64,000 nucleotides of DNA from Bdellovibrionota bacterium (lineage in GTDB: Bacteria; Bdellovibrionota_C; UBA2361; OMII01), in NCBI GenBank assembly GCA_044345405.1, contig JBIJBE010000012.1, positions 20,918-84,917 of the forward strand, in the 5' to 3' direction. The notes beneath the pieces were generated by a model. It was not told the origin of the DNA, did not search any database, and saw only the letters and a program-made list of their open reading frames with translations. This document shows positions 21,480 to 36,144 of this stretch, piece by piece. How positions within the stretch are numbered: the first letter of the stretch is position 1; each line of letters starts with the position of its first letter. The translations under genes and the position numbers were made by a program.

Positions 21480-23924
21480 TCATGACGCGCGTTCTTTCAC
21501 CAAGGAGATCTTCTCCTCGTACACAGCGCGCACCCGTGGATCTGTCTCATCATCGTAGCTCTGGGAGATCAACTTCAAGAGCATGATATCGTTCACCTTG
21601 GTCAGGCTCGACACCGCCGCAACGCGCACAGGGGCCGAAGGATGACCCAACAGATCAACGATATCGAGCTGGTCCATCGAATCACTATACCGCCTCAATA
21701 GTATCTCAATCACCTCTGGAGGCGCTCCTCGAGTGAGCTGCCGGAGAAACTCTTGGCTCCGGGGGGCGTCTCGCACAACATCAAGCTCACTATTGAGAAC
21801 ATCAGCGCCAACAACATCTCGCAAGTCAATCGCGGCCACGACACCGGCGAAACGGGAGCTATCATTCCCATACGAAGATCGAACAAACTCCATAATCTTG
21901 GCGACGTAAGGATCCGCGATCGGCTTCGCGCTCAAGGCGTCAAAGGCGGCCCGCTTTAACGAGGAGCTCGAAGCTGTGAGGACCGTGGCCTCAAGAACAC
22001 GGGACGCCCCCTGTCCGTACCACTCGTCAAAGAGTCTTACATCGTCCATCGAGAGGTTTCCGAGAGCTCCCGACACCATCGCCGTCCGAAGGCGCTGTCT
22101 CAGCGCGGCTGACCGTCGCAGCTCCCTGAGAAAGACGGCGCGTCCACCAGGGATACTCTGCCTTCGCTCCGCTATTTGCGCGGCGGTGGAGACCTCTGGC
22201 CGCCCTTGCCGTCCCAACTCCTCAAGGAGCCATACGACGTCACTCGCGGGAATCTTCTCCTGCATTGCCACGATATCCTCCGAAAAGAGATCATGCACGT
22301 CGGGCAGAAGCAGCATTAATGCGTACGGGTTATGCTCGCCCCCATTCGCGATACCCACCTGTTCAGCGACCGCCTTGGCGAACAGTCCCCGATACGCTTC
22401 CGCGTCCCCAGTATCCAGCGCGCTCGCCGCGGCGAGAATACACGCTACACGTGGTGATACTTGATATAACCGCGCAAGCTCCTCGAGACGGGAATTACTT
22501 GACAACGCGGGATCCAATAAACGAAGAAATGGGCGGGATCCCTCATCTCCGCCAAAAGTCGCTGGCTCCTTCGCGTCCTGCATTTGTCCAAACACCACGT
22601 CCGCGGTTCGCCCTAATCCCTGTCGTCGCGCCCGAAAGGTGAGGACCTTTTCAATCTCGAGGCGTCGAGCGGGATCCGGCGCTTGAGATAGCAATTCGAT
22701 TATTTCCTGATACGCCGTTGGGGAGTCAGATTGGTACAATGCGGTGAGCCTCGTAGTGTCATCGTCTCGCTTTGTCACCTCAGCGACCTCGCGGCTTTCA
22801 AGGGCGATCGCCCCGGCGCGCCCGGCGACGTAGGAATAGAGAAGAAATCCCAGGGCGAAAAAGTTGAGAAAGGCGAGGAGAAGGACCCGACTCGGGTTTC
22901 TAAAGAGACCGACGACATCCCCGGCGAGAGATACTATCCGCTGCGGTGACACAAGGTCACCGAGTGATAATCCAGGACGTCCCCGAGAATCGAAACCACC
23001 GCCGGTTGGAGGCTCCGTTCCTGACTCCTCGTCATCATCCTCACGCCCCTCCCTAAAGCCCTTAGCTTTTCCTTGTGCCGGGGACTCTAACTCTTCTCGA
23101 GCGGCCGCCTGAATTTTCGCCGCATCCCCCACCTCAGGCCGATCCTGAGCCTCCCCTTCTCCTGGCTCCGTTGGCTCTTCGTCATCCCGAGGAAGGCGCG
23201 TGAGAGTCGCGGAATCGTGTTTTTTGCGAAGCTCCTCAGACGCGGTGGATTCCAGAAGCCCCTTAAGCCACGAAGGCGTCGCCTTCGATTCGACACTCTT
23301 CTCGTTAACCGGCACAGCGCACAATCCCTCACCAAGTCGAGCGAGCGCGTACGCGTCCACCGACGCCGTTTGGGTTCCACCGTTACGCTGCTCTGACGGC
23401 CGAAACGCTATGTATCGGTTGCGATTAAAATCCTCATCCTCTTGCTCCAACGCGACATCACCAAGAACCGCGAAAAGCGATACTCCTCCCCGATCGTTGA
23501 GGAGAAAGGAATCAAGACAGAGATCCCCACACGTAATTCGACGCTGGTGGAGCGAATCAACTATCGCGGCACACGCGTCGAAACGCTCCTCAATCTCATC
23601 GGCTGATGACGCGGGACAATCGATCTTGCGCCCATCATAGGCTCGAAGAACGGCGAATCCCCGATTGTAGCAGTCAATTCCACACGACAGGATAGCCTCA
23701 ACTCTGGGAACTCTCCGCAACGCCAAGAGCCGCTCCTGGAAGCGCCCGATCTCCCCGACCCGTAACGGACCACGAGTGCGCCATACCGTCACCTCGCGCC
23801 CCGTCACCGTATCAACGGCGCGATACGCTTGCGCGGTGAGCGTGCCAGCGACCGGTCCCTGAAAGTCGAACCGGTCCTCGAGAGAACCGCTCATTTTTTC
23901 GAAATCGTTCGACTGATGCTCCAT
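21480..23924 (-). CDS. Membrane protein with an N-terminal degenerate Ser/Thr kinase-like domain and C-terminal helical/HEAT repeats
   Basis: YRAVDTVTGREVTV, SLHQRRITCGDL, RPSEQ and SVDAYALA follow kinase subdomain order; TM VLLLAFLNFFALGFLLY; HEAT-like LLGHPSAPVRVAAVSSL and DETDPRVR. Confidence 0.7.
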   Translation of the reverse strand: MEHQSNDFEKMSGSLEDRFDFQGPVAGTLTAQAYRAVDTVTGREVTVWRTRGPLRVGEIGRFQERLLALRRVPRVEAILSCGIDCYNRGFAVLRAYDGRKIDCPASSADEIEERFDACAAIVDSLHQRRITCGDLCLDSFLLNDRGGVSLFAVLGDVALEQEDEDFNRNRYIAFRPSEQRNGGTQTASVDAYALARLGEGLCAVPVNEKSVESKATPSWLKGLLESTASEELRKKHDSATLTRLPRDDEEPTEPGEGEAQDRPEVGDAAKIQAAAREELESPAQGKAKGFREGREDDDEESGTEPPTGGGFDSRGRPGLSLGDLVSPQRIVSLAGDVVGLFRNPSRVLLLAFLNFFALGFLLYSYVAGRAGAIALESREVAEVTKRDDDTTRLTALYQSDSPTAYQEIIELLSQAPDPARRLEIEKVLTFRARRQGLGRTADVVFGQMQDAKEPATFGGDEGSRPFLRLLDPALSSNSRLEELARLYQVSPRVACILAAASALDTGDAEAYRGLFAKAVAEQVGIANGGEHNPYALMLLLPDVHDLFSEDIVAMQEKIPASDVVWLLEELGRQGRPEVSTAAQIAERRQSIPGGRAVFLRELRRSAALRQRLRTAMVSGALGNLSMDDVRLFDEWYGQGASRVLEATVLTASSSSLKRAAFDALSAKPIADPYVAKIMEFVRSSYGNDSSRFAGVVAAIDLRDVVGADVLNSELDVVRDAPRSQEFLRQLTRGAPPEVIEILLRRYSDSMDQLDIVDLLGHPSAPVRVAAVSSLTKVNDIMLLKLISQSYDDETDPRVRAVYEEKISLVKERAS

Positions 23925-23932
23925 TCCGTTTC

Positions 23933-26053
23933 CTACCGTCCAGCCAACGTCCACATTCCAATTTGCTGCACAGACACACTCGGATCCAACTCCTCAAAGG
24001 TCGTAACGAACAACGAGTGCTTGGTCATTCGGGTAATCGAAAGGACTTTTTCCTTCACCTCATTAGAGCAGAGGAGCGCGATCGGAAGAATTCCCTGCTC
24101 TAGGGTCGGCTTCAAGACGTTCGAGAGTCCCTGCATAAGCGCGTCCAGCACCGGTGCCTCTACAGCCACCGGCAATGATTTATTGTTAAAGTCGGCATCC
24201 TGGAGCGTTCGTTCAACCTCATCGGAGAGAGATACCACATGAAGGCTTTGATGAGACCCAAGGAATCTTCGAAGAACCTGGCGCCGACGATTTCCACGAA
24301 GGTGCCGTACCACCTCTTCAACCTCAACACCGGCGTCATCGTCAATCGAGACGCGATGGGCGGAGCAATAGGAGGCGACGCCCTCAATGACTCCGCGGAA
24401 GTCTCGAATACTAACCCCCTGCCTTACGAGCTCATGAAGCAGCTCCGTTAGTCGTGGCACCGATACGAACTCTTTACCGAATCCCTCTGCTATGAGTCCC
24501 GGGTGGCGCTTTTCGATCTGTCGTAACAATGAATGCACATCGGTTACGGAAAGAAACTCCTCGGGATGTCGGAGACTAAAGCTCGCCACACGAAGGGAGA
24601 TGTACTCGAAGAAATCGTAGCTACGCACCGTTCCAGCGTCTAGGATGCCCCGTATCTGCGGCGTGTTCTTGGTCCAGAAGACCCGATGACCTGAGATAGG
24701 ATGATCCTCCTCTTTGATCACAGGAAGCCCTAGCACGGCTGCCTGACAACTCGACACCTCCACAAGGAGCGCGTCCGCGGCGACGGTCCCAGACACCATC
24801 TCAACACCTGAATGAGACACCCGATATGAAGACGGCGCGAGTAGATCGTTGTGCCCTACGTTAAGGTCGGGCAGAACCATACCTACATTGGCGTGAAACG
24901 CTTCATTGAACTGTTCCCACGACTCCGTGTACCGCTGAACCTGCGCCCGATACGCTTTGAAGAGGACGGTGTGATCGAGCTCTAAGCGAAGGGCACCATC
25001 ACCAATCTCACTAACTCCCCGTTCGTGACGCACCTCGGATCCCCCTCCGGCGCGCCGGTATTCCCCAGCGATACCGCTCCGAACAGGAAGCTCACGCTCC
25101 TTCCTCAGAAGTAAAAGACCCGCGGCAACCGCCGTCGCGGCGACAAGCAGGAATGGCGCAGCCGGGATGCCGGGCATGACGGCGAAAACAACCAAGATAA
25201 GCGCGGTCACTAAGAGAGTGATCGGTTGAGAGAATAGCTGCGCGCGAAGATCAACTCCAAGAGTCGAGGTCTCCGATGAGGACACACGCGTCACGATGAT
25301 ACCAGCGCAGATCGAGGTTAGAATACTCGGAATCTGTGTCACGAGACCGTCACCCACGGTAAGCACGGTGTATGTCTGCGCCGCGTCAGAGAATGAGAGC
25401 CCTGACGCGATACCCATGTAGATACCACCCACGATATTCACCACGATGATGAATATGCCCGCGACCGCGTCGCCCTGAACGAACTTCATCGCTCCGTCCA
25501 TCGAACCGTAGAGCTGAGACTCAAGTCTCAAGTGGTCGCGTTTCTGCCGTGCCTCCTCGGCTGAGATAACTCCAGCGCGGGCGTCATTATCAATAACCAA
25601 CTGCCGTCCAGGCAACGCGTCGAGGAAGAACCTCGCGGCGACCTCGGACACGCGGGTCGCGCCTTTGGCGATTACGATGAAGTTTACGATGGTAACGATC
25701 GAGAAGATGATGATTCCAACGACCACCTCTCCGCGAATAAGGAAGGTACCGAAGGATTCGATCACTCGCCCAGCGTCTCCCTGACTGAGAATAAGCCTTG
25801 ATGAGGCCACGTTGAGCCCGAGACGGAAGAGCGTACTCAAGAGCAGTACCGTCGGGAACGTGTACAGGGCCGCGGAGTTGGCGACGTAGAGACCAACGAG
25901 CAGGAGAAGGATCGAGAACGAGATATTGAGAACGAGAAGGATATCGAGAAGCGGTGTGGGAAGTGGAACGATAAGCATCGCCGCGATGGCGATCACGAAC
26001 GCCAAAAGAACGATCTCCGAGTACCGCATCCGTCCTGAGAGTAATCCGATCAT
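23933..26053 (-). CDS. sctV: Type III secretion export gate protein, FHIPEP family (SctV/LcrD/FlhA), closer to the injectisome type
   Basis: FPTVLLLSTLFRLGLNVASSRLIL, FIVIAKGATRVSEVAARFFLDALPG, ESQLYGSMDGAMKFVQGDAVAG, LTVGDGLVTQIP and VSIRD; 706 aa from ATG 26053 with an AGGAG RBS. Confidence 0.92.
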   Translation of the reverse strand: MIGLLSGRMRYSEIVLLAFVIAIAAMLIVPLPTPLLDILLVLNISFSILLLLVGLYVANSAALYTFPTVLLLSTLFRLGLNVASSRLILSQGDAGRVIESFGTFLIRGEVVVGIIIFSIVTIVNFIVIAKGATRVSEVAARFFLDALPGRQLVIDNDARAGVISAEEARQKRDHLRLESQLYGSMDGAMKFVQGDAVAGIFIIVVNIVGGIYMGIASGLSFSDAAQTYTVLTVGDGLVTQIPSILTSICAGIIVTRVSSSETSTLGVDLRAQLFSQPITLLVTALILVVFAVMPGIPAAPFLLVAATAVAAGLLLLRKERELPVRSGIAGEYRRAGGGSEVRHERGVSEIGDGALRLELDHTVLFKAYRAQVQRYTESWEQFNEAFHANVGMVLPDLNVGHNDLLAPSSYRVSHSGVEMVSGTVAADALLVEVSSCQAAVLGLPVIKEEDHPISGHRVFWTKNTPQIRGILDAGTVRSYDFFEYISLRVASFSLRHPEEFLSVTDVHSLLRQIEKRHPGLIAEGFGKEFVSVPRLTELLHELVRQGVSIRDFRGVIEGVASYCSAHRVSIDDDAGVEVEEVVRHLRGNRRRQVLRRFLGSHQSLHVVSLSDEVERTLQDADFNNKSLPVAVEAPVLDALMQGLSNVLKPTLEQGILPIALLCSNEVKEKVLSITRMTKHSLFVTTFEELDPSVSVQQIGMWTLAGR

Positions 26054-26066
26054 GCGTCCTCTCCTC

Positions 26067-26999
26067 TTACTCCATCGCCTTAAGAAGGGTTCGCCCGAAA
26101 CCGACCAAAAGGATGAACAGGAATCCAGCGAACACGAGAGCAACTGGCGCGGTCGCCGCGAGCTCCAGTTTTTTAATTTTTTCCTCTACCTTCGTCTCAC
26201 GTTCGGCCGACACCGACTCAGAGAGATCCTGAAGCTGCTTCGAGATCTCTCCTCCGTATCGAGCCACCTGCGCGAGCGCTTTGAAGGAGTGCTTCACCTC
26301 ATTACTACCCGACTGTCTGCCAACCTCATTGAGAGCGTCCTGCAAACTCACTCCAGACTTGATGTAGGCCTGGGCGAACCGAAGAAGTTCGGTAACAGGG
26401 TTGTGAGAATCGCGCTCATCCGCCATCTGCACGACCCGCGCTAAGCACGGACCGATATCGAGGGAGCTACTGACGCCGATAGAGATCTGCTCGATGACGA
26501 GCGGAAGATAAAAAGTGATATCCTCCTGACGTAGCTTTATCCATTTATCAAGTCGCTTGAGGGGAATATATGCTCCGAGCATACCTCCCACGGCTCCATA
26601 CAAAATAGCGCTGGCCGGATCTCCACTCATCGATCCATACCCGGCACCGAGAAGTCCCAACGCGGATGGCATGACGACTTGAAGCCGTCGAAAATCTCGT
26701 CGCTGCTCCTCAGAGAAGAGTCCCGCTTGAAACATCCGCTCATCCAGGGTGAGAGACCTCTTCTTCCCCCCACCTTTTTTCGCGGCGAGCCTGGAGAGGA
26801 TCTCGTCCTCAGCGCTTCGAGACTCGTCCGAGAACTCGTCGGAGCGATCTCCCTCTATTTCGTTATCATCTGAATACCTCTGCCCCATCAAGGCGCGAAG
26901 GTTGTCTCGCTGCTCAAGGGCCTTGAGGTATCTCACGCCATAGTAGGCGGCAACCGCCAGAATAATTGAGAATATAGGGATGAGAGTCCAGTTATTCAT
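26067..26999 (-). CDS. tadC: Tad pilus inner-membrane platform protein TadC (T2SSF family)
   Basis: N-terminal TM, two central TMs, T2SSF domain, single C-terminal TM; follows tadB. Confidence 0.85.
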   Translation of the reverse strand: MNNWTLIPIFSIILAVAAYYGVRYLKALEQRDNLRALMGQRYSDDNEIEGDRSDEFSDESRSAEDEILSRLAAKKGGGKKRSLTLDERMFQAGLFSEEQRRDFRRLQVVMPSALGLLGAGYGSMSGDPASAILYGAVGGMLGAYIPLKRLDKWIKLRQEDITFYLPLVIEQISIGVSSSLDIGPCLARVVQMADERDSHNPVTELLRFAQAYIKSGVSLQDALNEVGRQSGSNEVKHSFKALAQVARYGGEISKQLQDLSESVSAERETKVEEKIKKLELAATAPVALVFAGFLFILLVGFGRTLLKAME

Positions 27000-27005
27000 A
27001 GTCCC

Positions 27006-27992
27006 TTACACCCTAATCTTCGTAACCTGCATCACCCAGTACATGCCGATCATGATCATGGTAAGGCCTCCTTGAGCTACCTTAGCCGCGACCGGATCGG
27101 TCCAGGTGACGATAACGCACTCAGGCCACGCCAGGTACAAGTACGCCTCTAACGAGAATAAGATCCCGAGAATGAAAAGGATGGAGCCGCGCTGCAAGCC
27201 AACTGCCGCTTGGGCTGACGCCCGGAAATACTGACGCTTTCGAACCTGACGAGCCAATCTGTCCACCGTCTCTGATAGGTTACCACCGACACGACGACTA
27301 AGAAGGAGAGATTGAACGAACAGTTCGATCTCAGGATGGTTTACGTCCTCGCCGAAGGAGCCGATCGAACGCTCCTCGCTAACCCCCAACCGAAGTCGCT
27401 CCAACATCAGTTCAACCTCTTGTCGCACAAGAGACGCTTCCTCAAGATTGACGGCACACGCCTCGAGCGCCTGCATCGGGTTCAGTCCAGTCTTGAGCAT
27501 ACCCACAAAGCTAAGAAGGAATTGCGGAAAATCCCTGTCGAAGCGCTTAAAGCGCGCCTTGAGACGATTATTAATGAATGCGTTGACAACCAGCGGCCCT
27601 ACCGTAAGAGCCATGAGTTGAAGCAAGATATAGAAGTATTGGCGCGCGATAAGGAACGCGCCAATGCTAAGCACTATCTGCGCTACCGCGAACACGAAGG
27701 GCGGTATGTGCGAGAGCTGGGCGAACTTGAGTCGCTTCTGAAGAGTCAGCTTGTTATCAGAGCTGGGGGCCATGCCCTCATCCTGCCCTTCCTCACCCGA
27801 ACGTCCGTTGGTGGTATAGGTGAAAGCTCTTCTCTCGCCAGCCGCGTCCTCATCTCGCTGAGCCGCAACCATCTCTCGGATACTCTGTCTGATGGCGACG
27901 TCAGAGCTGACGCCAAAGCCGATCACCCCCCGCGCCATGTAGGCGACGAGACCCAGTAAAAATATGGCGGGGATAACGAGCCAGAGAGTCAT
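27006..27992 (-). CDS. tadB: Tad pilus inner-membrane platform protein TadB (T2SSF family)
   Basis: F...FPQFL......LKTG...MQAL and RRVGGNLSETVDRLARQVRKR; follows the ATPase. Confidence 0.88.
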   Translation of the reverse strand: MTLWLVIPAIFLLGLVAYMARGVIGFGVSSDVAIRQSIREMVAAQRDEDAAGERRAFTYTTNGRSGEEGQDEGMAPSSDNKLTLQKRLKFAQLSHIPPFVFAVAQIVLSIGAFLIARQYFYILLQLMALTVGPLVVNAFINNRLKARFKRFDRDFPQFLLSFVGMLKTGLNPMQALEACAVNLEEASLVRQEVELMLERLRLGVSEERSIGSFGEDVNHPEIELFVQSLLLSRRVGGNLSETVDRLARQVRKRQYFRASAQAAVGLQRGSILFILGILFSLEAYLYLAWPECVIVTWTDPVAAKVAQGGLTMIMIGMYWVMQVTKIRV

Positions 27993-27995: not shown

Positions 27996-29531
27996 TTAGC
28001 CTTTCCCTCCCGGACGAACAGGCGGGCCAAATGTTATCTCCTTCGGGGATTCACCGAGGTGAATCCCATCCGCCTTGAGCTGCTCGTCGAAGTTACTTGT
28101 CCAGGAATCCACTCGCCACACCGGACGTTGTCCCTGCTTGATCAGCGTGAACATCGGACGCACCTGGATCTGCCCCTCAACGAAATGGCCAACCTCGATT
28201 ACCTCGGCGATGCGAGGCTTACCGGTCGACTTCTCACGAATGAGCCACACGATGGAGTCGACCGCGAGCGCAATCTGTTGTCGGATGATGTCGATGGCGA
28301 CTGATTTTTGAGCGCGGCCTAGCAAACTCTCCAGGCGGACGAGGGTCTCCCGCGCGTTTCGGGCGTGGATCGTCGACATTCCAACATGCCCCGTTTGCGC
28401 GCTCTCAAGAAACGCCTCCGCCGAGAAGGGAGTTCTCATCTCACCAAGGATTACTCGGGTTGGGGTCATTCGAAGGGTTGTCTTGATGTGCTCCTGAAGT
28501 GTCACCTCTCCCATCCCTTCGGCGTTGGCCGCTCGAGAAACGAGCGATCGGAAAAACGGATGCGCGAAATTCAACTCAGGGGTATCCTCGACCGCCACGA
28601 TAGACTCATCGGGTCCAAATTGAGTCGCCAAACATTTGATCAGCGTCGTTTTACCTGTTCCGGTCTCGCCGGCGACCATCATGGTTGCCAACCCGCTTCG
28701 GATCAGGCACGCGAGGTAGTTTACGATCAGCGGAGGCGCTACTTGATAAGTAACGATGTTCTCAAGGGCGACCTCTGACATTCGAGGAACTCGGATACAC
28801 AAAAGAGGGCCGCGCTGTCCGCACACGCTCTCATGAACGGCGCATAGTCGAGTTCCGTTCGGAAAAGATCCGTCCACGGTGTGCTGCGCCGTCGTTAAAG
28901 ATTTCCCGAGGCGAAGGAGGAGTCGATCCAGGAACGTCACATACGCTTGGTGATTCGGCCAACTCAGTCCGGTCAGCTCACTAACCTTTCCTCGTTGGAG
29001 AACAACGGACTTGTAGTCATAGACGTGAATGTCGGTTACCTCTTTGTTGTCAACGAGAGGTTGAAGAACGCCCCATCCTACGAGGTCTTTTTGGAGTGAG
29101 AGAATGATGTTCGCGCGTTCGATATCATCGAGGGTCTCTCCTCGTTTTTTCAGAACCTTGTCCACAGCGCCGGCGATAACCTTCTCGGTCATCGCTGGAT
29201 TGTTCATCTGTTGTTGAAGGGAGAGATCGCTTCCCAGTTCTCGGCGAACTTCACGCATGACGATCGAAGCTGTCTGGGATAGCTCGGCACTTCGCGCGAT
29301 GGGCGGTTTAGCGGCGGGGCGAATTTTTTCAGGCGCTGGTTGAATTACCTCAGCGCTGTTTTTTTGAACCGCGGGAAGCGAACCAGGATTCGCCGGTGGG
29401 TTCGCGGGCGCTTTGCCCGGAGCTACGGCGGGGGCAGGCGTTGACTTGAGTGGTGCTATTCGAGTTTGCGTGCCTCGCGCGGAGAAGATCCCGAGCAAGT
29501 CTTCCTTACCGTCTTTGTCCGAACCAGCCAT
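27996..29531 (-). CDS. tadA: Tad pilus assembly ATPase TadA/CpaF
   Basis: GWGVLQPLVD.EVTDI, VDGSFPNGTR, Walker A GETGTGKTT, VEDTPEL, LRMTPTRVILGEMR and TGH..STIHA. Confidence 0.95.
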   Translation of the reverse strand: MAGSDKDGKEDLLGIFSARGTQTRIAPLKSTPAPAVAPGKAPANPPANPGSLPAVQKNSAEVIQPAPEKIRPAAKPPIARSAELSQTASIVMREVRRELGSDLSLQQQMNNPAMTEKVIAGAVDKVLKKRGETLDDIERANIILSLQKDLVGWGVLQPLVDNKEVTDIHVYDYKSVVLQRGKVSELTGLSWPNHQAYVTFLDRLLLRLGKSLTTAQHTVDGSFPNGTRLCAVHESVCGQRGPLLCIRVPRMSEVALENIVTYQVAPPLIVNYLACLIRSGLATMMVAGETGTGKTTLIKCLATQFGPDESIVAVEDTPELNFAHPFFRSLVSRAANAEGMGEVTLQEHIKTTLRMTPTRVILGEMRTPFSAEAFLESAQTGHVGMSTIHARNARETLVRLESLLGRAQKSVAIDIIRQQIALAVDSIVWLIREKSTGKPRIAEVIEVGHFVEGQIQVRPMFTLIKQGQRPVWRVDSWTSNFDEQLKADGIHLGESPKEITFGPPVRPGGKG

Positions 29532-29824: not shown

Positions 29825-30721
29825 TTATCGCTGGGGCTTGTTTGAGCCCACGGAGTCCTCAGGCACAAGCTTACCACCTATAATGAGGTAGTTACGCCCC
29901 CCGAAGGTGATTCGCCCCTCCCTTGGGGGCCCCGAGACGGCTTGGGGTGTCGCCAAACCAAACACAGCGTCGAGGGTCACTGTCTGACTATCAGCAGACT
30001 CAACGGTGTCCTCGTCTCCACGCAGGGCGAGACTCATGACACCCGCTGTAGAGGCGAGCTGTATCTTGGTTGCCTCCTCAACGGTAACCATGATGGTGAT
30101 AGTTGTCGATCCCGCGCCTTTGACTGCCCGCGTACCACCGACCTTACCGGTCGAGAGAACCTTCGCATTCTGAGCGAGAAGCGTTATGACCGGCTTGTTA
30201 GATATTTGCGAAGCCAACATAACGTCCACCTTAGCCCCAGCTCGAACCCATCCCTCGACATTCGACACGTCATCAACGGAGACCGATACGGCTCTGAAAC
30301 CCTCGGGGATATTAGCTTGTATCTCATTCACCGGAGCTTTCGTGGTGATGTATTCGGCAAGAAGTGGCTGACCAGCCGCGATAAACGAGGCCGCGTACGC
30401 TCCCCGAAGCTTCTCAAAACTCGTAACGACCGACGCGCCACCACTAATAACAGGCCGAGTCTCCTTCTTGAATCGAGAGGGATCCAGCGGCGTACCAGGC
30501 TCGATCTTTTCGGTAGCCACGAGACAATCGACCAATTCGACCACGGGCGCGGGCAAAGGTGTTGGGGTTGGAGGGGCAACAGGCGCCTGTTCGACCGACA
30601 TAGATTGAACGACGAAAATAGCGCCTACGATCACAAGCAACGATGCGCCCAAAAGAGCCACACGCAGCGGCTCGTTTCCCTTTTTCCGACTAAAACCGCC
30701 TGCGGGTTTGACTGGAGGCAT
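29825..30721 (-). CDS. cpaB: Flp pilus assembly protein CpaB/RcpC
   Basis: TM anchor, SAF domain, IPEGFRAVSVSVDDVSNVEGWVRAGAKVDV, QNAKVL and SLALR. Confidence 0.93.
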   Translation of the reverse strand: MPPVKPAGGFSRKKGNEPLRVALLGASLLVIVGAIFVVQSMSVEQAPVAPPTPTPLPAPVVELVDCLVATEKIEPGTPLDPSRFKKETRPVISGGASVVTSFEKLRGAYAASFIAAGQPLLAEYITTKAPVNEIQANIPEGFRAVSVSVDDVSNVEGWVRAGAKVDVMLASQISNKPVITLLAQNAKVLSTGKVGGTRAVKGAGSTTITIMVTVEEATKIQLASTAGVMSLALRGDEDTVESADSQTVTLDAVFGLATPQAVSGPPREGRITFGGRNYLIIGGKLVPEDSVGSNKPQR

Positions 30722-30850
30722 CTAGTTCTCTCTGGGGTCTTGTGCTTGTTGACCAAGCGAAGGAATCAATCGCGAAAAACTGGTAGTGGCAATGCCGACC
30801 TGAACAGGTTAGCTCCCGGTACCAGACTCAAAAAACCGCGGATAACCCCG

Positions 30851-30895
30851 AATAAAAAATGCTGACGGCACTCTCGTTGTACTCGAGTGCCGTCA
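30851..30895 (-). terminator. Intrinsic terminator/stabilising hairpin after flp
   Basis: Perfect 11-bp stem TGACGGCACTC/GAGTGCCGTCA followed by GCATTTTTTATT on the minus strand. Confidence 0.75.
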
Positions 30896-30919
30896 TGCTG
30901 AAACCAAAGACAGGTTCAG

Positions 30920-31099
30920 TTATCCGGTGATCTGATTGCTCAAGGCGCTGAATTGCTGGCTAATTGTATTTCCGAGGCTTCGGATAGCTACGATAGCGAT
31001 GATTGCGATGAGCGCCACAAGCAGCGCGTACTCAACCAACGAAGCTCCCTTCTCAGCCTTCTTCACGCTCTTTGCCTGCTCTACCTTAACTATTTCCAT
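30920..31099 (-). CDS. flp: Flp/Fap-family pilin (Tad-type)
   Basis: Prepilin site KG|ASLVEYALLVALIAIIAI with the E5-Y6 Flp motif; GGAG RBS before ATG 31099. Confidence 0.95.
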   Translation of the reverse strand: MEIVKVEQAKSVKKAEKGASLVEYALLVALIAIIAIVAIRSLGNTISQQFSALSNQITG

Positions 31100-31168
31100 C
31101 TTTATCTCCATAAACAAAACGTAGCTCAGTTGGGCAAGTGGGGCCTGCGCACGAAGCTGTAGACATCT

Positions 31169-31197
31169 ATGCTAAACACGAAGGGAAAATCGAGCAA
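31169..31197 (-). promoter_or_regulatory. Putative sigma70-type promoter for flp
   Basis: TTGCTC-N17-TAGCAT about 70 bp upstream of the pilin ATG. Confidence 0.45.
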
Positions 31198-31215
31198 GCG
31201 GTTTTTTGTAGGGGC

Positions 31216-32484
31216 TTAACCTACGGTACCATCTCGCTTTCGCGAGAAGATACGCTGGAACCACCTTGGGGCCCCTGCCTCCCCCGAGACGTCAGCCTCG
31301 GGAGCCACCTCTCCCGCTTCAATCTCTCCCAAGAGACCTAATTCCTTAGCCGCCACTTCGAAGGTTTGCCGAATCGCCTTTCCACCCATACTATAGAGCG
31401 TTTTACCACTACCTGGCCAAAGGGTTCCCTTGGTATCCCTCGGCAAGGGAGCCATTCGCCACGGTCGATCGCCCAATCTATGCGCCGGCTCAAGCTCGGC
31501 AGCAATCTGCTCAACGCTTGAGATCGCCCCCGCCGTGGGATTAACGAGGAAGCAAATCCGCTCAGGACTGCCCACGACCGATTTAACGAAGGAGAGAAAG
31601 AGGTCAACGGCGGTAACGCCCAGAACGGAGTCATCGATCACCACCAGAACGATATCGGCGTTCCGTATCAACGCTCCGGTCGCCGGCCCTAATCTACCGG
31701 CCGTATCGATGATGACAACATCGTTATCAGCCCTTGCAACTTCAGCTATTCGCTGGGCTATGGCCATACTCTCCGTGTGACACACGAGGTCCATGGACTC
31801 CGCTAAACGATCGGGGGTCGTAAGAACCGCCACATCGTTACTAATTGGAATCACGGCTGTCCTCAGGGTGTCTCGATTTATCTCCTGCTCTCCGCTCACC
31901 CACCCGCTCACGACCCGCGCCTCGTCGCCGCTCACCTTGAGCGCCCGACTGAGGTCTCGAGTCTCTACGTCGAGATCCCATATTAATGTGCGTCGCCCGA
32001 ACTGACCACAAACGTCGGCAAGGGCGGCCGCTACCGAAGTCGCGCCGACGCCACCTTTCGCGTGAGCGACAACAACAACTTTACCCTCATGAGTTCGCCC
32101 TTCGCGGCGAAACTCTGTATTGATCGCGACAAGCTCTTGTAGAAAATCAAGTGGACTTCCACCTTCAGGGAAGACCTTGCGAACCCCTGCCGAGTGGGCG
32201 AGTCGAAACGCGCCACCACCGTAGGCGTCATCAGTGACAAACATGATCAATTGGGGGCGAGGTGAGAGTGCGTTAGCTTGATGAGCGAGCGCCAAACCCG
32301 CTTCGCCCATACCCGAACCTATCACCACCACATCAGCGTCAGCGGCACGGTCAGCGAAATCCTTGTCGCTAACGAGCTTAACCTTCAGATCAAGCATTTC
32401 CAAGTCGCCCCGACTGAAGGACTCGATGCGCTTCGCGCATCGCGCTTGAGCCTCTGTTGTCTTATCAACGATGAGCAGTTTCAT
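31216..32484 (-). CDS. cpaE: CpaE/TadZ-family pilus localisation protein (atypical receiver plus MinD-like ATPase)
   Basis: MKLLIVD receiver-like start, deviant Walker A KGGVGAT, WDLD and VVIIDT; adjacent to flp. Confidence 0.85.
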   Translation of the reverse strand: MKLLIVDKTTEAQARCAKRIESFSRGDLEMLDLKVKLVSDKDFADRAADADVVVIGSGMGEAGLALAHQANALSPRPQLIMFVTDDAYGGGAFRLAHSAGVRKVFPEGGSPLDFLQELVAINTEFRREGRTHEGKVVVVAHAKGGVGATSVAAALADVCGQFGRRTLIWDLDVETRDLSRALKVSGDEARVVSGWVSGEQEINRDTLRTAVIPISNDVAVLTTPDRLAESMDLVCHTESMAIAQRIAEVARADNDVVIIDTAGRLGPATGALIRNADIVLVVIDDSVLGVTAVDLFLSFVKSVVGSPERICFLVNPTAGAISSVEQIAAELEPAHRLGDRPWRMAPLPRDTKGTLWPGSGKTLYSMGGKAIRQTFEVAAKELGLLGEIEAGEVAPEADVSGEAGAPRWFQRIFSRKRDGTVG

Positions 32485-32496
32485 CTTTTGACTCTC

Positions 32497-33888
32497 TTAA
32501 AAATGCCATTTAGCTAACAACGACGGAGCAAACAACTTGAGAAACATAAAGCCACACCCGATACCTACTGCTGCCGCGAAGATAAGCACAAGGATTTCAC
32601 CCCAGTGAGAATCCTTTTCACTGTTTCGGCGCGGCCCGCTTCTCGAGCGCGCAGGGCGGAACTCCGCGGACCTCTCCTTTACGTTAGCCTCTTGGAAATT
32701 AGACACAAGAGGCTCTGACGCGGAATAGGGAACATCTGTTTCAACAGGGGCGTTACTGAGTGGCTCCTCGAGCCCACGACCCTCACTTACGCGAGACCGC
32801 CCCGCCACCTGATGGGAGTGGTTGGCATACCCCTCTGGCTCAACGCTCCGCATACCAACGTTTGAGACGCCAGCCTCTTCAAAGCCTCCCCGAGAATCCT
32901 CTCCCTCTCCGTGAGAGCTCCGCATCATTCCCGCTCGCTCTCCATCACTGACCGCCTCTGAGGGAGTAGCGCGTCGTTGAGAAACCGAGGATGAGTGTCC
33001 GGCGTTTCCTGGGGAAACCACAACCCCGCCATCGAGATCCATCTCTACCGCCAGACTCTGCAAATCGCGAAACATGTCGATTGACGCTTGGTATCGCTTC
33101 TCTGGTTCTCGCTGCATCGCCTTCAGGATGATTCGATCGAGCTCTGGTGGGCATTCCTCGCGCAAAGAGCTAGGCGGAGCTGGATCTGTCTTAAGACGCT
33201 TCGTCATGGTCGCGTAGACGCTCTCGCCCTTGAATGGAGAATCTCCGGTTACCATCTCATACGCCAAGATTCCAAGCGCGTAGATGTCGGACCTCCAGTC
33301 GACCTGAGATTTTAACATATACTCGGGCGCCACATAGTCTATGGTCCCGACCACGCCTCCGTGCTCGGTCAACTTAGGTCCGTGGCGATTACGAGCTATG
33401 CCGAAATCCGCGATCTTTACGTTCCCCTCAGCTGTAAGAAGAATATTTTCCGGTTTTAAATCACGGTGCACTATCCCCGCGTCGTGAATCGCCTGACACC
33501 CGGCGGACATCTGGCTCAGGATCCGCATTATCTCTGGGATCGGAATCCGCTCATCCGAACCGAGCTTCGACGCGAGATCTCCACCACCAACGAATTCCAT
33601 CGTATATGCGACAAAGTCTCGATCCGTAAGGTACTCGTAGGCTCTCACAACATTGGGATGCGATACCTCATACGCGGCAAGGATCTCATTCTTGAATCGC
33701 GCCGCCGCGACCTTATCCGTGGCGACCTCCGGGAACAACACCTTCATCGCGACGATCTGGCCTTGCAGCACCTGATTCTTACACGCGTACACCGATCCCA
33801 TACTGCCGGAGCCGAGGCACTTCACGACCTCGTACTTCCCGCCAATGACGGCACCCGGTTGTAGGTTTATGGTGTGCTCTTCACTCAT
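32497..33888 (-). CDS. Hanks-type Ser/Thr protein kinase with a C-terminal membrane anchor
   Basis: GSGSMG, VAMK, HRDLKPEN, DFG, YVAPE and SDIYALG all intact; terminal TM. Confidence 0.96.
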   Translation of the reverse strand: MSEEHTINLQPGAVIGGKYEVVKCLGSGSMGSVYACKNQVLQGQIVAMKVLFPEVATDKVAAARFKNEILAAYEVSHPNVVRAYEYLTDRDFVAYTMEFVGGGDLASKLGSDERIPIPEIMRILSQMSAGCQAIHDAGIVHRDLKPENILLTAEGNVKIADFGIARNRHGPKLTEHGGVVGTIDYVAPEYMLKSQVDWRSDIYALGILAYEMVTGDSPFKGESVYATMTKRLKTDPAPPSSLREECPPELDRIILKAMQREPEKRYQASIDMFRDLQSLAVEMDLDGGVVVSPGNAGHSSSVSQRRATPSEAVSDGERAGMMRSSHGEGEDSRGGFEEAGVSNVGMRSVEPEGYANHSHQVAGRSRVSEGRGLEEPLSNAPVETDVPYSASEPLVSNFQEANVKERSAEFRPARSRSGPRRNSEKDSHWGEILVLIFAAAVGIGCGFMFLKLFAPSLLAKWHF

Positions 33889-33900
33889 ACAAGCGGACGA

Positions 33901-35133
33901 CTATCCCTCCTCCACCTCGCCAACGACGAGGAGGACATGAAACTTTCGATCTCCAAAGAACAGTACGTCCCCATGAGACAAGGAGCTCTTCTCGCCTGAG
34001 AGGAACTCCTCTTCCCTTTGACCGACACGTTTGACACGAGTGCCGGACTCAGAGAGTTGATCCAAAACCTGCAGACTACCGCCCGCGGCTACTCGCATGA
34101 TGGCGTGCATTGGAGAAACGGAATCTCCGACAACAACGAGACAATTTCCCGAATCCTCGCGTTGATTCGAGACCATGAGGCGCCCCTGGCGAAGCTCCAC
34201 ATACGTTCCGTTCGAATCATGGTCATAGGTCACTAGAAATCCAACGAGCGGTGACTCGCTCTTCCAGTAAATCTGATCTCGTGGTTCGCTCATAAGCTCA
34301 GCGTCCGGCGCCTCTTGATAGGTACTCGTTTTCAGTTCAGATGGAAAAACCTGCCCCTCTCTAGATTGGACCGCCGGCGCCGCCGTTTGATGGAGCGAAG
34401 GTGGAATTATGAGGCGCTCGTTCGGCACGGCCCTCTCATCCTCTCGCACGGCCGTTGGCGTCGGTGGGGACTCCTCGACGACGGGATCGAGATTCGGCAC
34501 ATCCTCAAAGGTGTCCTCAAGGTCACTATCACTGAGAACCGGGGACGCCTCCGCCGACATTTGCGGATCTCGCGGCTCCTCTTCATGCTCCATGGCGGCG
34601 AATGGATCAAAGAGGTCGGTCGCGACAACCTGGACGGGCGGATTGAGGATCCCAGAGGGAGAGCGTACGATCTTCGGGGCCGCAACCTGAGCTGACGCGG
34701 CAGGAGGCGGCTCAAAAACATCAAGCACTGATTGGAAATCATCATCAAGCCCCAGATCCCTCATGAGGGTCGATGAAGCGTCTTTCGAGCCGGATTCCCC
34801 CGCGGTGACCCGCTCGACGGTCTCCTGGGCTTCGGTAGCTCTGGTATCCTCATGCATAGTCCCAAAGATCTCATCAAGGCTCTGGAAATCATCATGGTGA
34901 GAGACTGGCGTGACAAACTCGTCCTGCTCAAGAGTATCAAGTCCGAGCGGATCGAGATCTCGCGCGTGAGGTTCTCCGCGAGAACCAAGCGGCTCGATAG
35001 GAGTAGCCCGCTCAACAGTCGCGCCGAGCGTGGAAACCCGTTCAGCTCCGATAATCATAGTGCGATTGCGAGCCCGCGTTCCCGCTGGAAGGCCCTTATC
35101 TCCGCTCCCTGGTCGCCCTGTGTCATCTTTCAT
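33901..35133 (-). CDS. Protein with a long acidic disordered region and a C-terminal FHA-like domain
   Basis: LVGFLV, VSPMHA, DQLSESGT and LSHGDVLFFG match FHA strand spacing; located between phosphatase and kinase. Confidence 0.75.
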   Translation of the reverse strand: MKDDTGRPGSGDKGLPAGTRARNRTMIIGAERVSTLGATVERATPIEPLGSRGEPHARDLDPLGLDTLEQDEFVTPVSHHDDFQSLDEIFGTMHEDTRATEAQETVERVTAGESGSKDASSTLMRDLGLDDDFQSVLDVFEPPPAASAQVAAPKIVRSPSGILNPPVQVVATDLFDPFAAMEHEEEPRDPQMSAEASPVLSDSDLEDTFEDVPNLDPVVEESPPTPTAVREDERAVPNERLIIPPSLHQTAAPAVQSREGQVFPSELKTSTYQEAPDAELMSEPRDQIYWKSESPLVGFLVTYDHDSNGTYVELRQGRLMVSNQREDSGNCLVVVGDSVSPMHAIMRVAAGGSLQVLDQLSESGTRVKRVGQREEEFLSGEKSSLSHGDVLFFGDRKFHVLLVVGEVEEG

Positions 35134-35145
35134 AAGCAGCTCCCT

Positions 35146-36144
35146 CTACAAATTCCTTAAAACCCTGAGATAGAAAAATAGTGCCACCGCCCCCAAAGAC
35201 GCCCCCACGGCGACGATGCTCGCGGTCACCATGTGGTAAATGAGGGAACGCCGCCACCAATCCCCGATTCGGCGGCTTCGCTCCCGACTCGCGATCTCTC
35301 GTCCCCAGGTGGGGGATTCCTCAGTTCGCAGATGCCCGTGAAGGGGAATTATTGAGATCGTTATGTTGTCGAACCCTCCCCTAGTATTCGCGAGCTGAAT
35401 TAACTCGGCGCACGCTTTGCGAGGAGCCAGCACAGTGACGATTCGACGAATCTCCTCCTCACTGACCAAGCTGTAGAGACCATCGGAGCACAGAACCAAG
35501 AGGTCAGACGCGCCTCCCCGCTCCAACGGCCAGATCCAATATCGATTCACATCGACCGTCACATCAGGAGAGGAACCAAGACATTGCGTGAGCACATGGG
35601 ACCGTGGATGCGTCAACGCCTCTTCTCGGGTTATCTCATTTCGGTCAACGAGTTGCTGCACATACGTATGGTCAACGGTGAGTTGCTGGATGCCTTCCTC
35701 GTGAACAAGGTACGCTCGCGAGTCCCCGACATGCGCGATGGCTACCGCGGAGTCCTCTATCAACGCCCCAACGATGGTGGTCCCCATCTCCTTGAAACGT
35801 TGACTCTGGCGGCGAAGCATGATCGTTCTGTTGGCTTCCTCGCAGGCGTTTCTCAGCGCTTCAACAACGTCCCCGTGATGTTCGGCCGTTAGAAATCTTC
35901 GAACCGCGTCAACACTGATCTGCGCGGCGAACTCTCCACCCTCCGCACCTCCCATTCCATCAAGCACGAGGAAGCACACACCCCGCTCGGTAGCGATCGT
36001 CGCGCACCTATCCTCATTCTCGGAGCGCTCAACTCCGACGTCGCTCATGGCGGCATGAACGAGCGGCTCGTCGATGACGGGGCTCGCGCGCTTGCGCTTA
36101 TTTTTGCTCGACTCGCTCTGTGCTTGCATTACGTTGCGGTCCAT
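35146..36144 (-). CDS. PP2C-family Ser/Thr phosphatase (Stp1/PrpC-like) with a C-terminal TM
   Basis: SDVG..R..NED, LDGMGG, MGTT, HVGDSRAY, LTVDH, LCSDGL and GGFDNIT. Confidence 0.95.
   Translation of the reverse strand: MDRNVMQAQSESSKNKRKRASPVIDEPLVHAAMSDVGVERSENEDRCATIATERGVCFLVLDGMGGAEGGEFAAQISVDAVRRFLTAEHHGDVVEALRNACEEANRTIMLRRQSQRFKEMGTTIVGALIEDSAVAIAHVGDSRAYLVHEEGIQQLTVDHTYVQQLVDRNEITREEALTHPRSHVLTQCLGSSPDVTVDVNRYWIWPLERGGASDLLVLCSDGLYSLVSEEEIRRIVTVLAPRKACAELIQLANTRGGFDNITISIIPLHGHLRTEESPTWGREIASRERSRRIGDWWRRSLIYHMVTASIVAVGASLGAVALFFYLRVLRNL

Follow-up and report, generated by a model that had tools for sequence, protein, structure and literature searches.

A type III export gate gene within the Tad pilus operon of uncultured Bdellovibrio-like bacteria

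Canonical Tad/Flp pili are encoded by loci such as tad of Aggregatibacter and cpa of Caulobacter, and the H1-T6SS of Pseudomonas has a threonine-phosphorylation pathway made up of the kinase PpkA, the phosphatase PppA and Fha1. Nearer to the locus studied here stands Myxococcus, in which the Kil pilus recruits a needle-less T3SS* and the two co-localise, as described in Herrou 2025 (PMC12075869). Seef 2021 (PMC8460266) describes Kil as having an ATPase with an N-terminal FHA fusion, KilF, a short secretin, KilC, and KilA, with no second ATPase, and its discussion mentions the T6SS threonine-phosphorylation pathway. According to a 2025 review (PMC12428579), the co-occurrence of Kil and T3SS* is apparently restricted to one myxobacterial suborder. 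We found no published description of a Tad operon carrying an SctV gate in the literature.

Such an operon lies in the window, by which we mean the whole stretch of 64,000 nucleotides that was analysed. Judging from gene order and sequence conservation, its gate gene is a fixed, strongly conserved member of the Tad operon across a group of uncultured Bdellovibrio-like bacteria.

The operon and its Tad components

The operon consists of eleven genes, all on the minus strand, in the order PP2C-FHA-Ser/Thr kinase-CpaE-Flp-CpaB-TadA-TadB-TadC-FHIPEP-membrane pseudokinase/HEAT. A preliminary description had named them in this way from the bare sequence, with the FHIPEP gene called sctV, and Pfam supports each assignment. 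They are given below in order of transcription, followed by the neighbouring gene downstream.

35146..36144, minus: PP2C-type Ser/Thr phosphatase, 332 aa, the cluster's first gene (Pfam PP2C_2 67.3 bits, PP2C 59.2 bits)
33901..35133, minus: FHA-domain protein, 410 aa (Pfam FHA 20.1 bits, just below the cut-off of 20.7)
32497..33888, minus: membrane-anchored Hanks-type Ser/Thr kinase, 463 aa (Pfam Pkinase 183 bits)
31216..32484, minus: CpaE/TadZ-like ParA/MinD-family ATPase, 422 aa (Pfam AAA_31 52 bits; CbiA, ParA and BcsQ matches)
30920..31117, minus: Flp prepilin, 65 codons as listed (Pfam Flp_Fap 38.9 bits, above the cut-off of 32.2)
29825..30721, minus: CpaB/RcpC periplasmic pilus-assembly protein, 298 aa (Pfam RcpC 67.7 bits, and SAF)
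27996..29531, minus: TadA/CpaF-type secretion ATPase, 511 aa (Pfam T2SSE 108.8 bits)
27006..27992, minus: TadB platform protein, 328 aa (Pfam T2SSF 47.4 bits)
26067..26999, minus: TadC platform protein, 310 aa (Pfam T2SSF 54.1 bits)
23933..26053, minus: Tad-linked FHIPEP ('type B'), a paralogue of SctV/FlhA, 706 aa (Pfam FHIPEP 576 bits, profile positions 2-656 of 657)
21480..23924, minus: membrane pseudokinase, 814 aa (kinase-fold profile match; weak C-terminal HEAT_2 match, 21 bits)
20813..21346, minus: thioredoxin-fold (AhpC/TSA/TlpA-like) protein (Pfam AhpC-TSA and Redoxin; lipoprotein-type signal with LSGC)

The first four genes, from the PP2C gene to cpaE, are each 12 nt apart, and the sequence bears out the very short gaps reported earlier at the other end of the operon: 3 nt between tadA and tadB, 6 nt between tadB and tadC, 13 nt between tadC and the FHIPEP gene, and 8 nt between the latter and the pseudokinase gene. 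The 13-nt gap holds a GAGGAG ahead of the ATG at 26053 and no promoter-like site was found in it, so nothing there points to an independent promoter separating the gate from tadC, an outcome that the preliminary description had considered damaging. Wider gaps separate cpaE from flp (98 nt), flp from cpaB (198 nt) and cpaB from tadA (293 nt), the last two leaving room for internal promoters. A 213-nt contig from one RNA library covers 30930-31138 in the flp region, and a 211-nt RNA-library contig, 100% identical, bridges the tadB/tadC junction (26915-27125); no transcript spanning tadC and the FHIPEP gene was seen in this one RNA library, whose contigs are short and may include DNA carry-over. 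We infer that the operon is co-transcribed.

The thioredoxin-fold gene lies 133 nt from the pseudokinase gene. A thioredoxin match adjoins the pseudokinase gene in locus L011 and in 21 of the 40 loci at order and class level, none of these being among the eight loci from other orders; its downstream position is conserved within the order, and it may belong to the unit as a twelfth gene. The other 31 window ORFs of at least 150 aa gave no match to further flagellar or type III families. The earlier statement that the 64 kb hold no other flagellar or injectisome gene is thus correct for the window, but not for the genome.

The hallmarks of a Tad/Flp system are in place: the TadA/CpaF ATPase, TadB and TadC in three adjacent genes, a Flp pilin, CpaB/RcpC and a CpaE-type ATPase. 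Flp has the G/ASLVEY motif followed by a hydrophobic helix; its true start may be a later ATG than the one listed. CpaB has an N-terminal transmembrane helix (21-39) and reaches 124 bits against NCBIfam pilus_cpaB (TIGR03177; cut-off 71), while TadA, with 57-84% identity in related loci, scores 208 bits against the NCBIfam TadA family, below its cut-off. The N-terminus of TadA is proline-rich, with no FHA match at E <= 0.01. For CpaE, the 54 bits against NCBIfam CpaE_hom_Actino are under the model's cut-off and place the protein at the level of the ParA/MinD family only; its synteny is conserved. The genome has no Tad-type secretin (CpaC/RcpA), its only two Secretin matches being a PilQ-like protein with AMIN/STN domains beside PilN (contig C34) and one beside T2SSF genes (C61), neither near either Tad locus. 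No prepilin peptidase (TadV/CpaA) was found in the window, the sole Peptidase_A24 match in the genome being a 323-aa frame on C19, and neither TadD nor TadE/F/G was detected in the locus.

Conservation of the linkage and identity of the gate

The preliminary description had proposed a genetic coupling of the Tad operon with the type III gate, to be checked by the adjacency of the two in relatives. In 29/29 loci of the same genus or family, the gene immediately upstream of the FHIPEP orthologue is tadC. The same holds for 38/40 loci sampled elsewhere in the order or in the class's other orders, and the two exceptions are cut contigs. The pseudokinase gene follows in 28/29 and 33/40 of these loci, respectively. 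Over the 69 loci, the median estimated distance from tadC to the FHIPEP gene is 43 nt, and 41 of them have a gap of at most 50 nt. The adjacency is real and tight, and far from being a peculiarity of one genome, with its short gaps it holds from genus to class, down to an FHIPEP identity of 33%. This suggests that these bacteria assemble and employ the pilus together with a stripped-down secretion machine. One could object that Tad systems and type III systems are not related to each other and that in most bacteria each works alone, and that the type III half of the present system has split from the Tad operon within the order with no obvious loss, as would be expected of two independent machines lying side by side or merely co-expressed. 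A chance neighbourhood, however, would not survive at such divergence, and the gate and the pseudokinase have remained within the Tad operon at every assessable locus; we consider a neighbourhood without joint function improbable.

The gate is neither a typical SctV nor a typical FlhA. Against the NCBIfam model for SctV (TIGR01399), whose threshold is passed by 60 of the 63 external SctV scanned, it scores 562 bits with a cut-off of 692, and against that for FlhA (TIGR01398) 515 bits with a cut-off of 772, failing both equivalog thresholds. In two trees, Tad-linked FHIPEP form a clade of their own with a support of 100, outside the FlhA clade and outside the clade holding 51 of the 52 sampled SctV. 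At the deepest level, the tree does not settle the order in which the FHIPEP clades branch.

That uncertainty at the base, together with a genome that is flagellated (FlhA, FlhB, FliP, FliI/FliH), is what might be said for a spare FlhA serving flagellar assembly or regulation. Yet the genome's true FlhA sits beside FlhB on contig C9 and reaches 841 bits against the same FlhA cut-off, six FlhA rows make up a separate clade with a support of 100, and the window has no flagellar gene. We give this explanation almost no credence, and the grouping of the gate with ordinary FlhA, which had been named beforehand as a possible objection to the proposal, is not seen in the trees.

The type III half and the possible role of the gate

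In relatives, the gate and the pseudokinase are the beginning of a longer series. In G018 and G011, the pseudokinase is followed by two FHA/Yop-YscD_cpl proteins, SctJ, a FliJ/YscO-like protein, SctQ, SctR, SctS, SctT, SctU, a small protein and a TPR protein; in G030 the operon runs past the pseudokinase up to SctQ, with SctRSTU elsewhere in the genome, and in G057 and G058, of the same order, the type III half is a separate locus. Cognate SctRSTU are present in all these relatives. In the genome studied here, the type III half lies on a separate contig from the window (C76:64119-70066) and comprises two FHA/SctD-like proteins, SctJ, an SctO-like protein, SctQ, a small protein and a TPR protein; the matches are weak and at family level (YscJ_FliF 37 bits, FliMN_C 51 bits, two FHA/Yop-YscD_cpl), and a conserved 82-aa protein has no Pfam match. 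Neither this half nor the clusters of G018, G011 and G030 contain a family match to an SctC secretin, an SctF needle or a translocon. The deep relatives' cluster is also without an SctN ATPase, which leaves TadA as its only ATPase gene; the present genome has a single non-flagellar SctL-SctN pair, unlinked.

These findings correct the preliminary description in two respects. It had spoken of a lone export gate, but the genome has three FHIPEP genes (the true FlhA, a second non-flagellar one and the Tad-linked one) as well as a complete flagellar export set and, besides it, a second non-flagellar set of type III genes. Nor is the gate short of type III partners. With the SctD-like proteins, SctJ, the SctO-like protein, SctQ and the TPR protein on C76, and their counterparts following the pseudokinase in deeper relatives, the simplest reading makes SctV part of a needle-less type III module that is linked to the Tad operon; SctV need not act with the Tad platform alone.

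What the genome has lost is the module's own SctRSTU. On C76, SctQ is directly followed by the small protein and the TPR gene; the genome contains only two FliP-family and two FlhB-family sets, and the SctR on C78 falls outside the clade of SctR from Tad-linked modules. The module's own genes could thus not furnish a canonical export channel. SctR, SctS, SctT and SctU of the module are likewise missing from the closest relatives, G083 and G079, while the majority of genomes in the lineage have kept three FliP genes, indicating that the module's own SctRSTU is usually retained.

The loss raises the question of whether the gate gene is a decaying relic on its way to becoming a pseudogene. Its frame, however, is open over 706 codons, and it keeps 71 of the 78 universally conserved columns (those at least 95% conserved across 57 FlhA and SctV rows), the seven changes being conservative; in the membrane domain, the charged and polar core residues are all retained. 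Across five genomes without a third FliP gene, dN is 0.06-0.10 with synonymous sites saturated, and SctQ of the same module shows a constraint equal to that of the gate. By these measures the gate is full length and under strong constraint, and we regard decay as very improbable.

A bolder explanation turns the loss into a clue. In a true chimera, the FHIPEP ring would be built into the Tad machine as a structural element that also couples energy, for example as an ion-driven or docking ring by TadB/TadC, and would work here without SctRSTU; the pseudokinase would be the adaptor between filament motor and gate, and the other type III parts would be accessory. The gate has indeed stayed with tadC and the pseudokinase while the rest of the type III half moved away within the order, the sub-clade has deleted SctRSTU cleanly around an intact and constrained gate with its membrane core preserved, and the deep relatives' cluster offers no ATPase gene besides tadA. 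Against this, the module's own SctRSTU is usually kept elsewhere in the lineage, the layout that looks ancestral is that of a complete export core, another SctRSTU set in the genome could be shared, and in known systems the assembly of SctV reportedly depends on SctRST. Were it true, this lineage would have combined the motor of a type IV filament with a type III export gate into a genuine chimera, but on balance we find this unlikely.

We think it fairly probable, instead, that the window carries the Tad half of a two-module envelope apparatus typical of the lineage labelled Bdellovibrionota in public records. The first module would be a Tad/Flp pilus motor made of CpaE, Flp, CpaB, TadA, TadB and TadC; the second would be a needle-less, secretin-less export complex derived from a type III system, with its gate, of a distinct FHIPEP/SctV lineage, and its dedicated membrane pseudokinase encoded by the last genes of the Tad operon, and with the remainder, from the FHA/SctD-like proteins to the TPR protein, ancestrally placed directly downstream and now on C76. 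The gate may use SctRSTU borrowed from the second non-flagellar system of the genome, or it may be a docking or ion-conducting ring that does without them. By analogy with Kil and T3SS* of Myxococcus, we infer that the two modules would act jointly.

Putative phospho-control genes and comparison with known systems

The machine is probably under phospho-control. As in a T6SS-like switch, genes for a kinase, a PP2C phosphatase and an FHA protein stand together at the head of the operon, and by this analogy their products most likely switch assembly or firing via threonine phosphorylation. The motifs of the Ser/Thr kinase are intact (GSGSMG at 26, VAMK, HRD at 141, DFG at 161, APE at 187) and a hydrophobic helix lies near its C-terminus (432-450). 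The FHA protein has an acidic, disordered-looking stretch of some 300 residues at its N-terminus and the FHA domain at its C-terminus. The latter region is 35% identical over 103 aa to FHA465 of C76, which has FHA and Yop-YscD_cpl matches, and on this likeness the operon protein and the SctD-like FHA protein belonging to the type III half are paralogues. There is one FHA protein in the operon and two on C76, and two in the contiguous clusters of relatives; in the deeper relatives L152 and L155, the matching FHA gene lies downstream of the pseudokinase.

The pseudokinase combines an N-terminal dead kinase fold, an acidic linker, a transmembrane helix (347-365) and a C-terminal helical-repeat (HEAT-like) domain of about 450 aa. 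A profile of 33 orthologues matches StkP, PknA and PknB with E = 7e-27 to 1e-22 (StkP 7e-27), and these active Hanks kinases are also the closest sequence matches found for it. The beta3 Lys is W48, HRD has become CGD (132-134), the loop Lys is replaced by C and the Asn by S, and the Asp of DFG is lost. We also considered the 814-aa protein as an active Hanks-type kinase and rejected the idea, the fold being supported but the catalytic residues replaced.

Set against known systems, the locus resembles canonical Tad loci in its Flp with a G/xxxxEY motif, CpaB/RcpC, CpaE/TadZ-like ATPase, TadA/CpaF, TadB and TadC. It differs from them in lacking CpaC/RcpA, TadV/CpaA, TadD and TadE/F/G, in the order cpaE-flp-cpaB-tadABC, and in starting with PP2C-FHA-kinase and ending with a type III gate and a pseudokinase. 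The gate shares with SctV and FlhA the full-length FHIPEP architecture and the conserved membrane-core residues; unlike them, it misses both equivalog cut-offs, forms its own clade, and is encoded after tadC rather than with sctRSTU or flhB, in a genome from which the cognate SctRSTU are missing. As in the H1-T6SS, the genes of the putative target machine are accompanied by those for a membrane Hanks kinase, a PP2C phosphatase and FHA proteins, but that machine would here be a Tad/type III hybrid, and there is an additional membrane pseudokinase.

The differences from Kil, in so far as the available part of its description goes, concern several components: TadA has no detected N-terminal FHA domain whereas KilF is FHA-fused, a CpaE/TadZ gene is present where Kil has no second ATPase, the locus has no secretin or prepilin peptidase while Kil has its short secretin, and the membrane pseudokinase has no named Kil counterpart. 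The Tad-linked gate also falls in a separate clade from the sampled SctV of Myxococcota. On the other hand, both systems are rich in FHA domains, and both pair a Tad-type motor with a type III basal complex without needle, translocon or secretin, as far as can be read from the genes here. In Myxococcus the two clusters are separate; here the gate gene is part of the Tad operon itself, with the whole export core following it in deep relatives.

The Tad cluster and its export-gate gene

Eleven genes, all in the same orientation on the minus strand, occupy positions 21480–36144; they are listed with their Pfam assignments.

Genes of the Tad cluster (Pfam)
35146–36144, minus: PP2C phosphatase
33901–35133, minus: FHA protein (20.1 bits, slightly below the cut-off of 20.7)
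32497–33888, minus: Ser/Thr kinase (Pkinase, 183 bits)
31216–32484, minus: CpaE/TadZ-like ParA/MinD ATPase
30920–31117, minus: Flp pilin
29825–30721, minus: CpaB/RcpC
27996–29531, minus: TadA/CpaF
27006–27992, minus: TadB
26067–26999, minus: TadC
start ATG at 26053, minus: FHIPEP gate (576 bits, profile positions 2–656 of 657, full-length)
start ATG at 23924, minus: pseudokinase (weak C-terminal HEAT match)

The gate is a 706-aa paralogue of SctV and FlhA, and the pseudokinase an 814-aa membrane protein. With their genes starting at 26053, where GAGGAG precedes the ATG, and at 23924, the gaps along tadA, tadB, tadC, the gate gene and the pseudokinase gene are 3, 6, 13 and 8 nt; the junction sequence thus returns the same values that the preliminary description had claimed. 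The first four genes of the cluster are spaced by 12 nt, and wider gaps lie between cpaE and flp (98 nt), flp and cpaB (198 nt) and cpaB and tadA (293 nt).

The RNA data came from the contigs of a single riverine metatranscriptome run (5% of words), which gave three short pieces: a 211-nt contig identical to 26915–27125 over the tadB/tadC junction and a 213-nt contig on flp, either of which may stem from DNA carry-over, and an unrelated record. Among these few short pieces of a single run, no contig lay over the tadC–FHIPEP junction. The scan for regulatory sites performed at chance level: it called 7 promoter-like sites where 7.6 were expected, and 25 terminator-like sites where the expectation was 16.6 ± 4.7; read with that limit, it placed neither kind of site at the tadC–FHIPEP or the FHIPEP–pseudokinase junction, and an independent promoter separating tadC from sctV, named earlier as evidence against their coupling, did not appear.

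The kinase of the cluster has the GSGSMG, VAMK, HRD, DFG and APE motifs and a membrane helix at its C-terminus. The profile of the pseudokinase family, built from an alignment of 33 members, matches StkP, PknA and PknB over its first ~300 positions (E = 7e-27 to 1e-22); in the family the beta3 lysine is replaced by Trp, HRD by CGD and the catalytic-loop Lys and Asn by Cys and Ser, and the Asp of DFG is lost. A single hydrophobic helix (residues 347–365) stands between the dead kinase domain and ~450 residues of helical repeats, which by analogy with Hanks receptor kinases would lie on the periplasmic side. A complex prediction of the cytoplasmic domain of the gate (residues 335–706, alignment A2) with pseudokinase residues 1–270 (alignment A1) scored 0.00, which bears on neither side.

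About 2 kb upstream of the cluster, at 38044–39258 on the minus strand, lies a gene for a second PP2C-family phosphatase, of the SpoIIE type (154 bits), separated from the Tad cluster by a divergent cobalamin adenosyltransferase gene. An ordinary proteostasis cluster with trigger factor, ClpP, ClpX and Lon occupies 13384–19838 (minus), and 53550–54413 (plus) encodes a cyclic-nucleotide-binding domain fused to DUF1003, a membrane domain whose function is not known. A minus-strand ORF at 2–3433, which runs off the window edge and exceeds 1144 codons, is built nearly throughout from Thr-Pro-Thr-Glu/Thr repeats; the underlying DNA arrays have periods of 12 to 252 nt. Pfam gave no match for this ORF, which accounts for the extreme GC and AT skew in the first 2 kb.

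Conservation of the tadC–gate linkage

A public pattern search, taking one genome per species, returned 80 loci, and TadC adjoins an FHIPEP gene in two of them (L011 and L012) and not in the other 78. These two, from MAGs labelled Bdellovibrionota and Bdellovibrionales, are the nearest loci, and the former, at 62% identity, shows the same complete gene order, kinase through thioredoxin. The number is this low because such a search picks up nothing beyond close relatives or the best-conserved motifs. We also searched 124 whole genomes of the window's phylum-level group, all from one class, most of which have three FHIPEP matches. Of the 90 other genomes in the order, 83 contain a match to the gate, either a best hit with E ≤ 1e-115 or a shorter fragment of 54–92% identity; the remaining seven are 55–93% complete.

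The genes flanking these loci, checked by tblastn, keep the adjacency of tadC and sctV that the preliminary description had proposed to follow across related MAGs. Within the same genus and family, TadC is immediately 5' of the gate in 29/29 loci and the pseudokinase gene follows in 28, the remaining locus stopping at a contig edge. A wider set of 40 loci, 32 of them further order-level ones and 8 from other orders of the class, has TadC in this position in 38, the exceptions being one contig of 2.9 kb and a locus at a contig end, and the pseudokinase in 33; six of the other seven loci end near the FHIPEP gene, and in the seventh, L142, tblastn found no pseudokinase match after the gate. Most of the wider set carries the complete series of kinase, CpaE, CpaB, TadA, TadB, TadC, FHIPEP and pseudokinase. 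The gap between tadC and the FHIPEP gene, an estimate since starts were set by alignment, has a median of 43 nt and is at most 50 nt in 41/69 loci and at most 150 nt in 56/69.

One orthologue is unusual: at L096 (G081:C153) the FHIPEP frame has 808 codons and the match to the window protein stops at residue 658, with ~450 nt of other in-frame sequence before the pseudokinase gene, which points to a rearrangement at this locus or to an assembly error.

Type III partners and the lineage of the gate

The gate had been described as lone. This holds within the window, where no flagellar or type III family was found among the other 31 ORFs of at least 150 aa, and fails genome-wide: the assembly (3.59 Mb, 85 contigs, 99.4% complete) has three FHIPEP genes and a second export core. 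The FHIPEP gene on contig C9 adjoins FlhB and, at 841 bits, passes the NCBI equivalog cut-off for FlhA (772). The one on C18 encodes a 637-aa protein whose C-terminal half is divergent; the gene series there is sigma factor, SctJ, SctQ, unannotated gene, FHIPEP, TPR. The third is the window gate, which stays below both equivalog cut-offs (SctV, 562 bits against 692; FlhA, 515 against 772). The second non-flagellar export core, on C78, comprises SctI-like, an unannotated gene, SctR, SctS, SctT and a SctU interrupted by a gene for a 1030-aa GAF/PAS histidine kinase; the C18 and C78 layouts are found again in two relatives, G011 and G057. There are only two FliP-family and two FlhB-family sets in the genome, FliI and FliH on C32, and one unlinked SctL–SctN pair on C22.

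Two of these loci deserve a remark. The split SctU (C78, L009:439-4853; also L183 of G011 and L196 of G057) occurs in three genomes from two orders, each time as an N-terminal membrane part and an 85–126-aa C-terminal piece with a gene for a ~950–1070-aa GAF/PAS histidine kinase between them. The C22 locus (C22:42800-45200; L211:4807-7485) holds orphan SctL-like, SctN-like, 174-aa and 90-aa genes between murJ and an agmatine deiminase gene, and its SctN-like protein is the sole non-flagellar type III ATPase, though the genome has two non-flagellar gate genes.

In three genomes of other orders, G018, G011 and G030, the gate has type III partners nearby, as Pfam showed for the DNA downstream of the pseudokinase gene. 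The first two continue with a protein of two FHA/Yop-YscD_cpl domains, a C-terminal FHA/YscD-like protein, SctJ, a FliJ/YscO-like protein and SctQ, and then with SctR, SctS, SctT, SctU (matching just the N-terminal two thirds of its family profile), a small protein and a ~130-aa TPR protein; in G030 the run reaches SctQ, and SctRSTU, the small protein and the TPR protein are elsewhere in the genome. Pfam gave no match to SctN, SctL, secretin or needle families in the three clusters. These genomes and G057 each have three FHIPEP types and three FliP genes; G058 (82% complete) has two of each. In the window's own order, G057 and G058 carry this type III half as a separate locus, and a search with their proteins located it in the own genome at C76:64119-70066, where Pfam confirmed two FHA proteins (FHA448 and FHA465), SctJ, a 174-aa protein in the SctO position, SctQ, a conserved 82-aa protein and a TPR protein. 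NCBIfam gave no name to the SctO-like protein, FHA465, TadC, Flp, the FHA protein of the window or the pseudokinase. A gate working only with Tad was rejected as the primary reading, the type III partners being present on C76 and contiguous in G018 and G011.

SctR, SctS, SctT and SctU are absent from the C76 half, where just 11 nt separate SctQ from the 82-aa gene. The SctR proteins of the Tad-linked module form a clade (support 95/94) that excludes the C78 SctR, which falls closest to the second-system SctR of G057. Relatives G083 and G079 share the SctRSTU deletion, and G075, of the same genus, has kept SctR about 1 kb past SctQ; most of the lineage has three FliP genes, and the window's closest relatives (G079, G080, G081, G083 and G086) have two.

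The small protein encoded towards the close of the Tad-linked type III half (82–98 aa, motif P-F/L-x-A-L-L-P ... M-L-x-x-V-L-x-W-L; no Pfam match for the 82-aa form) is always followed by a gene for a ~130–180-aa TPR protein (C76, L203:9379-10066; L173, L174, L192, L197, L201), even with SctRSTU deleted. The two resemble a chaperone paired with its substrate or subunit.

On the Tad side, the own genome has no Tad-type secretin: one secretin, PilQ-like with AMIN and STN domains, sits beside PilN on C34, and another beside T2SSF genes on C61. The only prepilin peptidase gene is on C19. A second Tad-like locus (C1:1825-7355, L210) has CpaE-like, a small ORF, CpaB, TadA, TadB and TadC in the same order and no secretin, with two unannotated genes and then a response regulator/hybrid kinase pair instead of a gate.

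The ancestry of the gate was approached with two trees. The first, computed quickly under LG+G4 from 87 rows, takes the lineage's own FlhA as root and lets same-genus rows stand for the window gate; it separates FlhA (6 rows, support 100), the Tad-linked type (25 rows, 100), the second-system type (4 rows, 100) and 51 external SctV (99). The second, a quick PMSF search under a site-heterogeneous model with 41 rows including the window gate, recovers the four clades with support of 100, 100, 100 and 98; it joins the Tad-linked type with SctV at a support of just 22, too low to set the order of FlhA, the two non-flagellar types of the lineage and SctV. As the clades are separate in both trees, the Tad-linked gate is a distinct FHIPEP lineage, neither ordinary FlhA, a grouping that the preliminary description had said would count against its proposal, nor nested in the sampled SctV, those of Myxococcota included. 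A flagellar paralogue was likewise rejected as the primary reading, given the 515 bits against the FlhA cut-off of 772 and the position outside the FlhA clade. The external FHIPEPs, 63 of 74 loci being scanned, all have SctV as their best-scoring family, 60 of them above its cut-off.

The gate has also remained constrained. An alignment of 6 FlhA, 51 SctV, 26 Tad-linked and 4 second-system sequences has 78 columns in which the FlhA and SctV rows are conserved to at least 95%, and the window gate keeps 71 of them; the seven changes (T85S, V105L, M152L, R383N, E545Q, L581V and R667K) are conservative, and all conserved charged residues of the membrane core are kept. Among five genomes without the third FliP, its dN is 0.06–0.10, less than that of TadC (0.12–0.20), with SctQ of the same module under similar constraint; synonymous sites are saturated (dS >2) and the ratios are rough.

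A two-module apparatus and its known counterparts

The best-supported reading is a two-module apparatus, made of a Tad/Flp motor and a type III-derived complex that has neither needle nor secretin. The gate of the type III-derived module and a dedicated pseudokinase would be hard-wired into the Tad operon, under a probable switch formed by the kinase, phosphatase and FHA protein. The gate and pseudokinase stay with tadC even where other parts have moved or been lost, and the comparative evidence suggests a Tad/type III partnership that is old, selected and wider than thought. Since the gate is still constrained after the loss of its own SctRSTU, it may either borrow the core of the second system or have a role that needs no such channel. 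The sub-clade is a natural experiment that bears on whether an SctV-type protein can do its work in the absence of an SctRST core of its own, and the type B (Tad-linked) gate, the pseudokinase and the FHA/SctD-like proteins are nominated as candidate linkers of the two modules.

A full-text literature search, supplements aside, found no published description of an sctV/flhA-type gene in a Tad operon. The closest parallel is Myxococcus, where the Kil pilus system recruits T3SS* and co-localises with it (PMC12075869); the proposed apparatus would work in a similar way. It differs from Kil as characterised by Seef 2021 (PMC8460266), having no FHA-fused ATPase and no short secretin but a CpaE, and the sampled Myxococcota SctV and the window gate fall in separate clades. 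For contact-dependent bacterial predation, a 2025 review (PMC12428579) calls it unresolved whether, and how, Kil and T3SS* form one larger complex, and states that the two seem to occur together in a single myxobacterial suborder only. Beside that system stands an independent, phylum-sized lineage with Tad and type III systems written into a single gene cluster.
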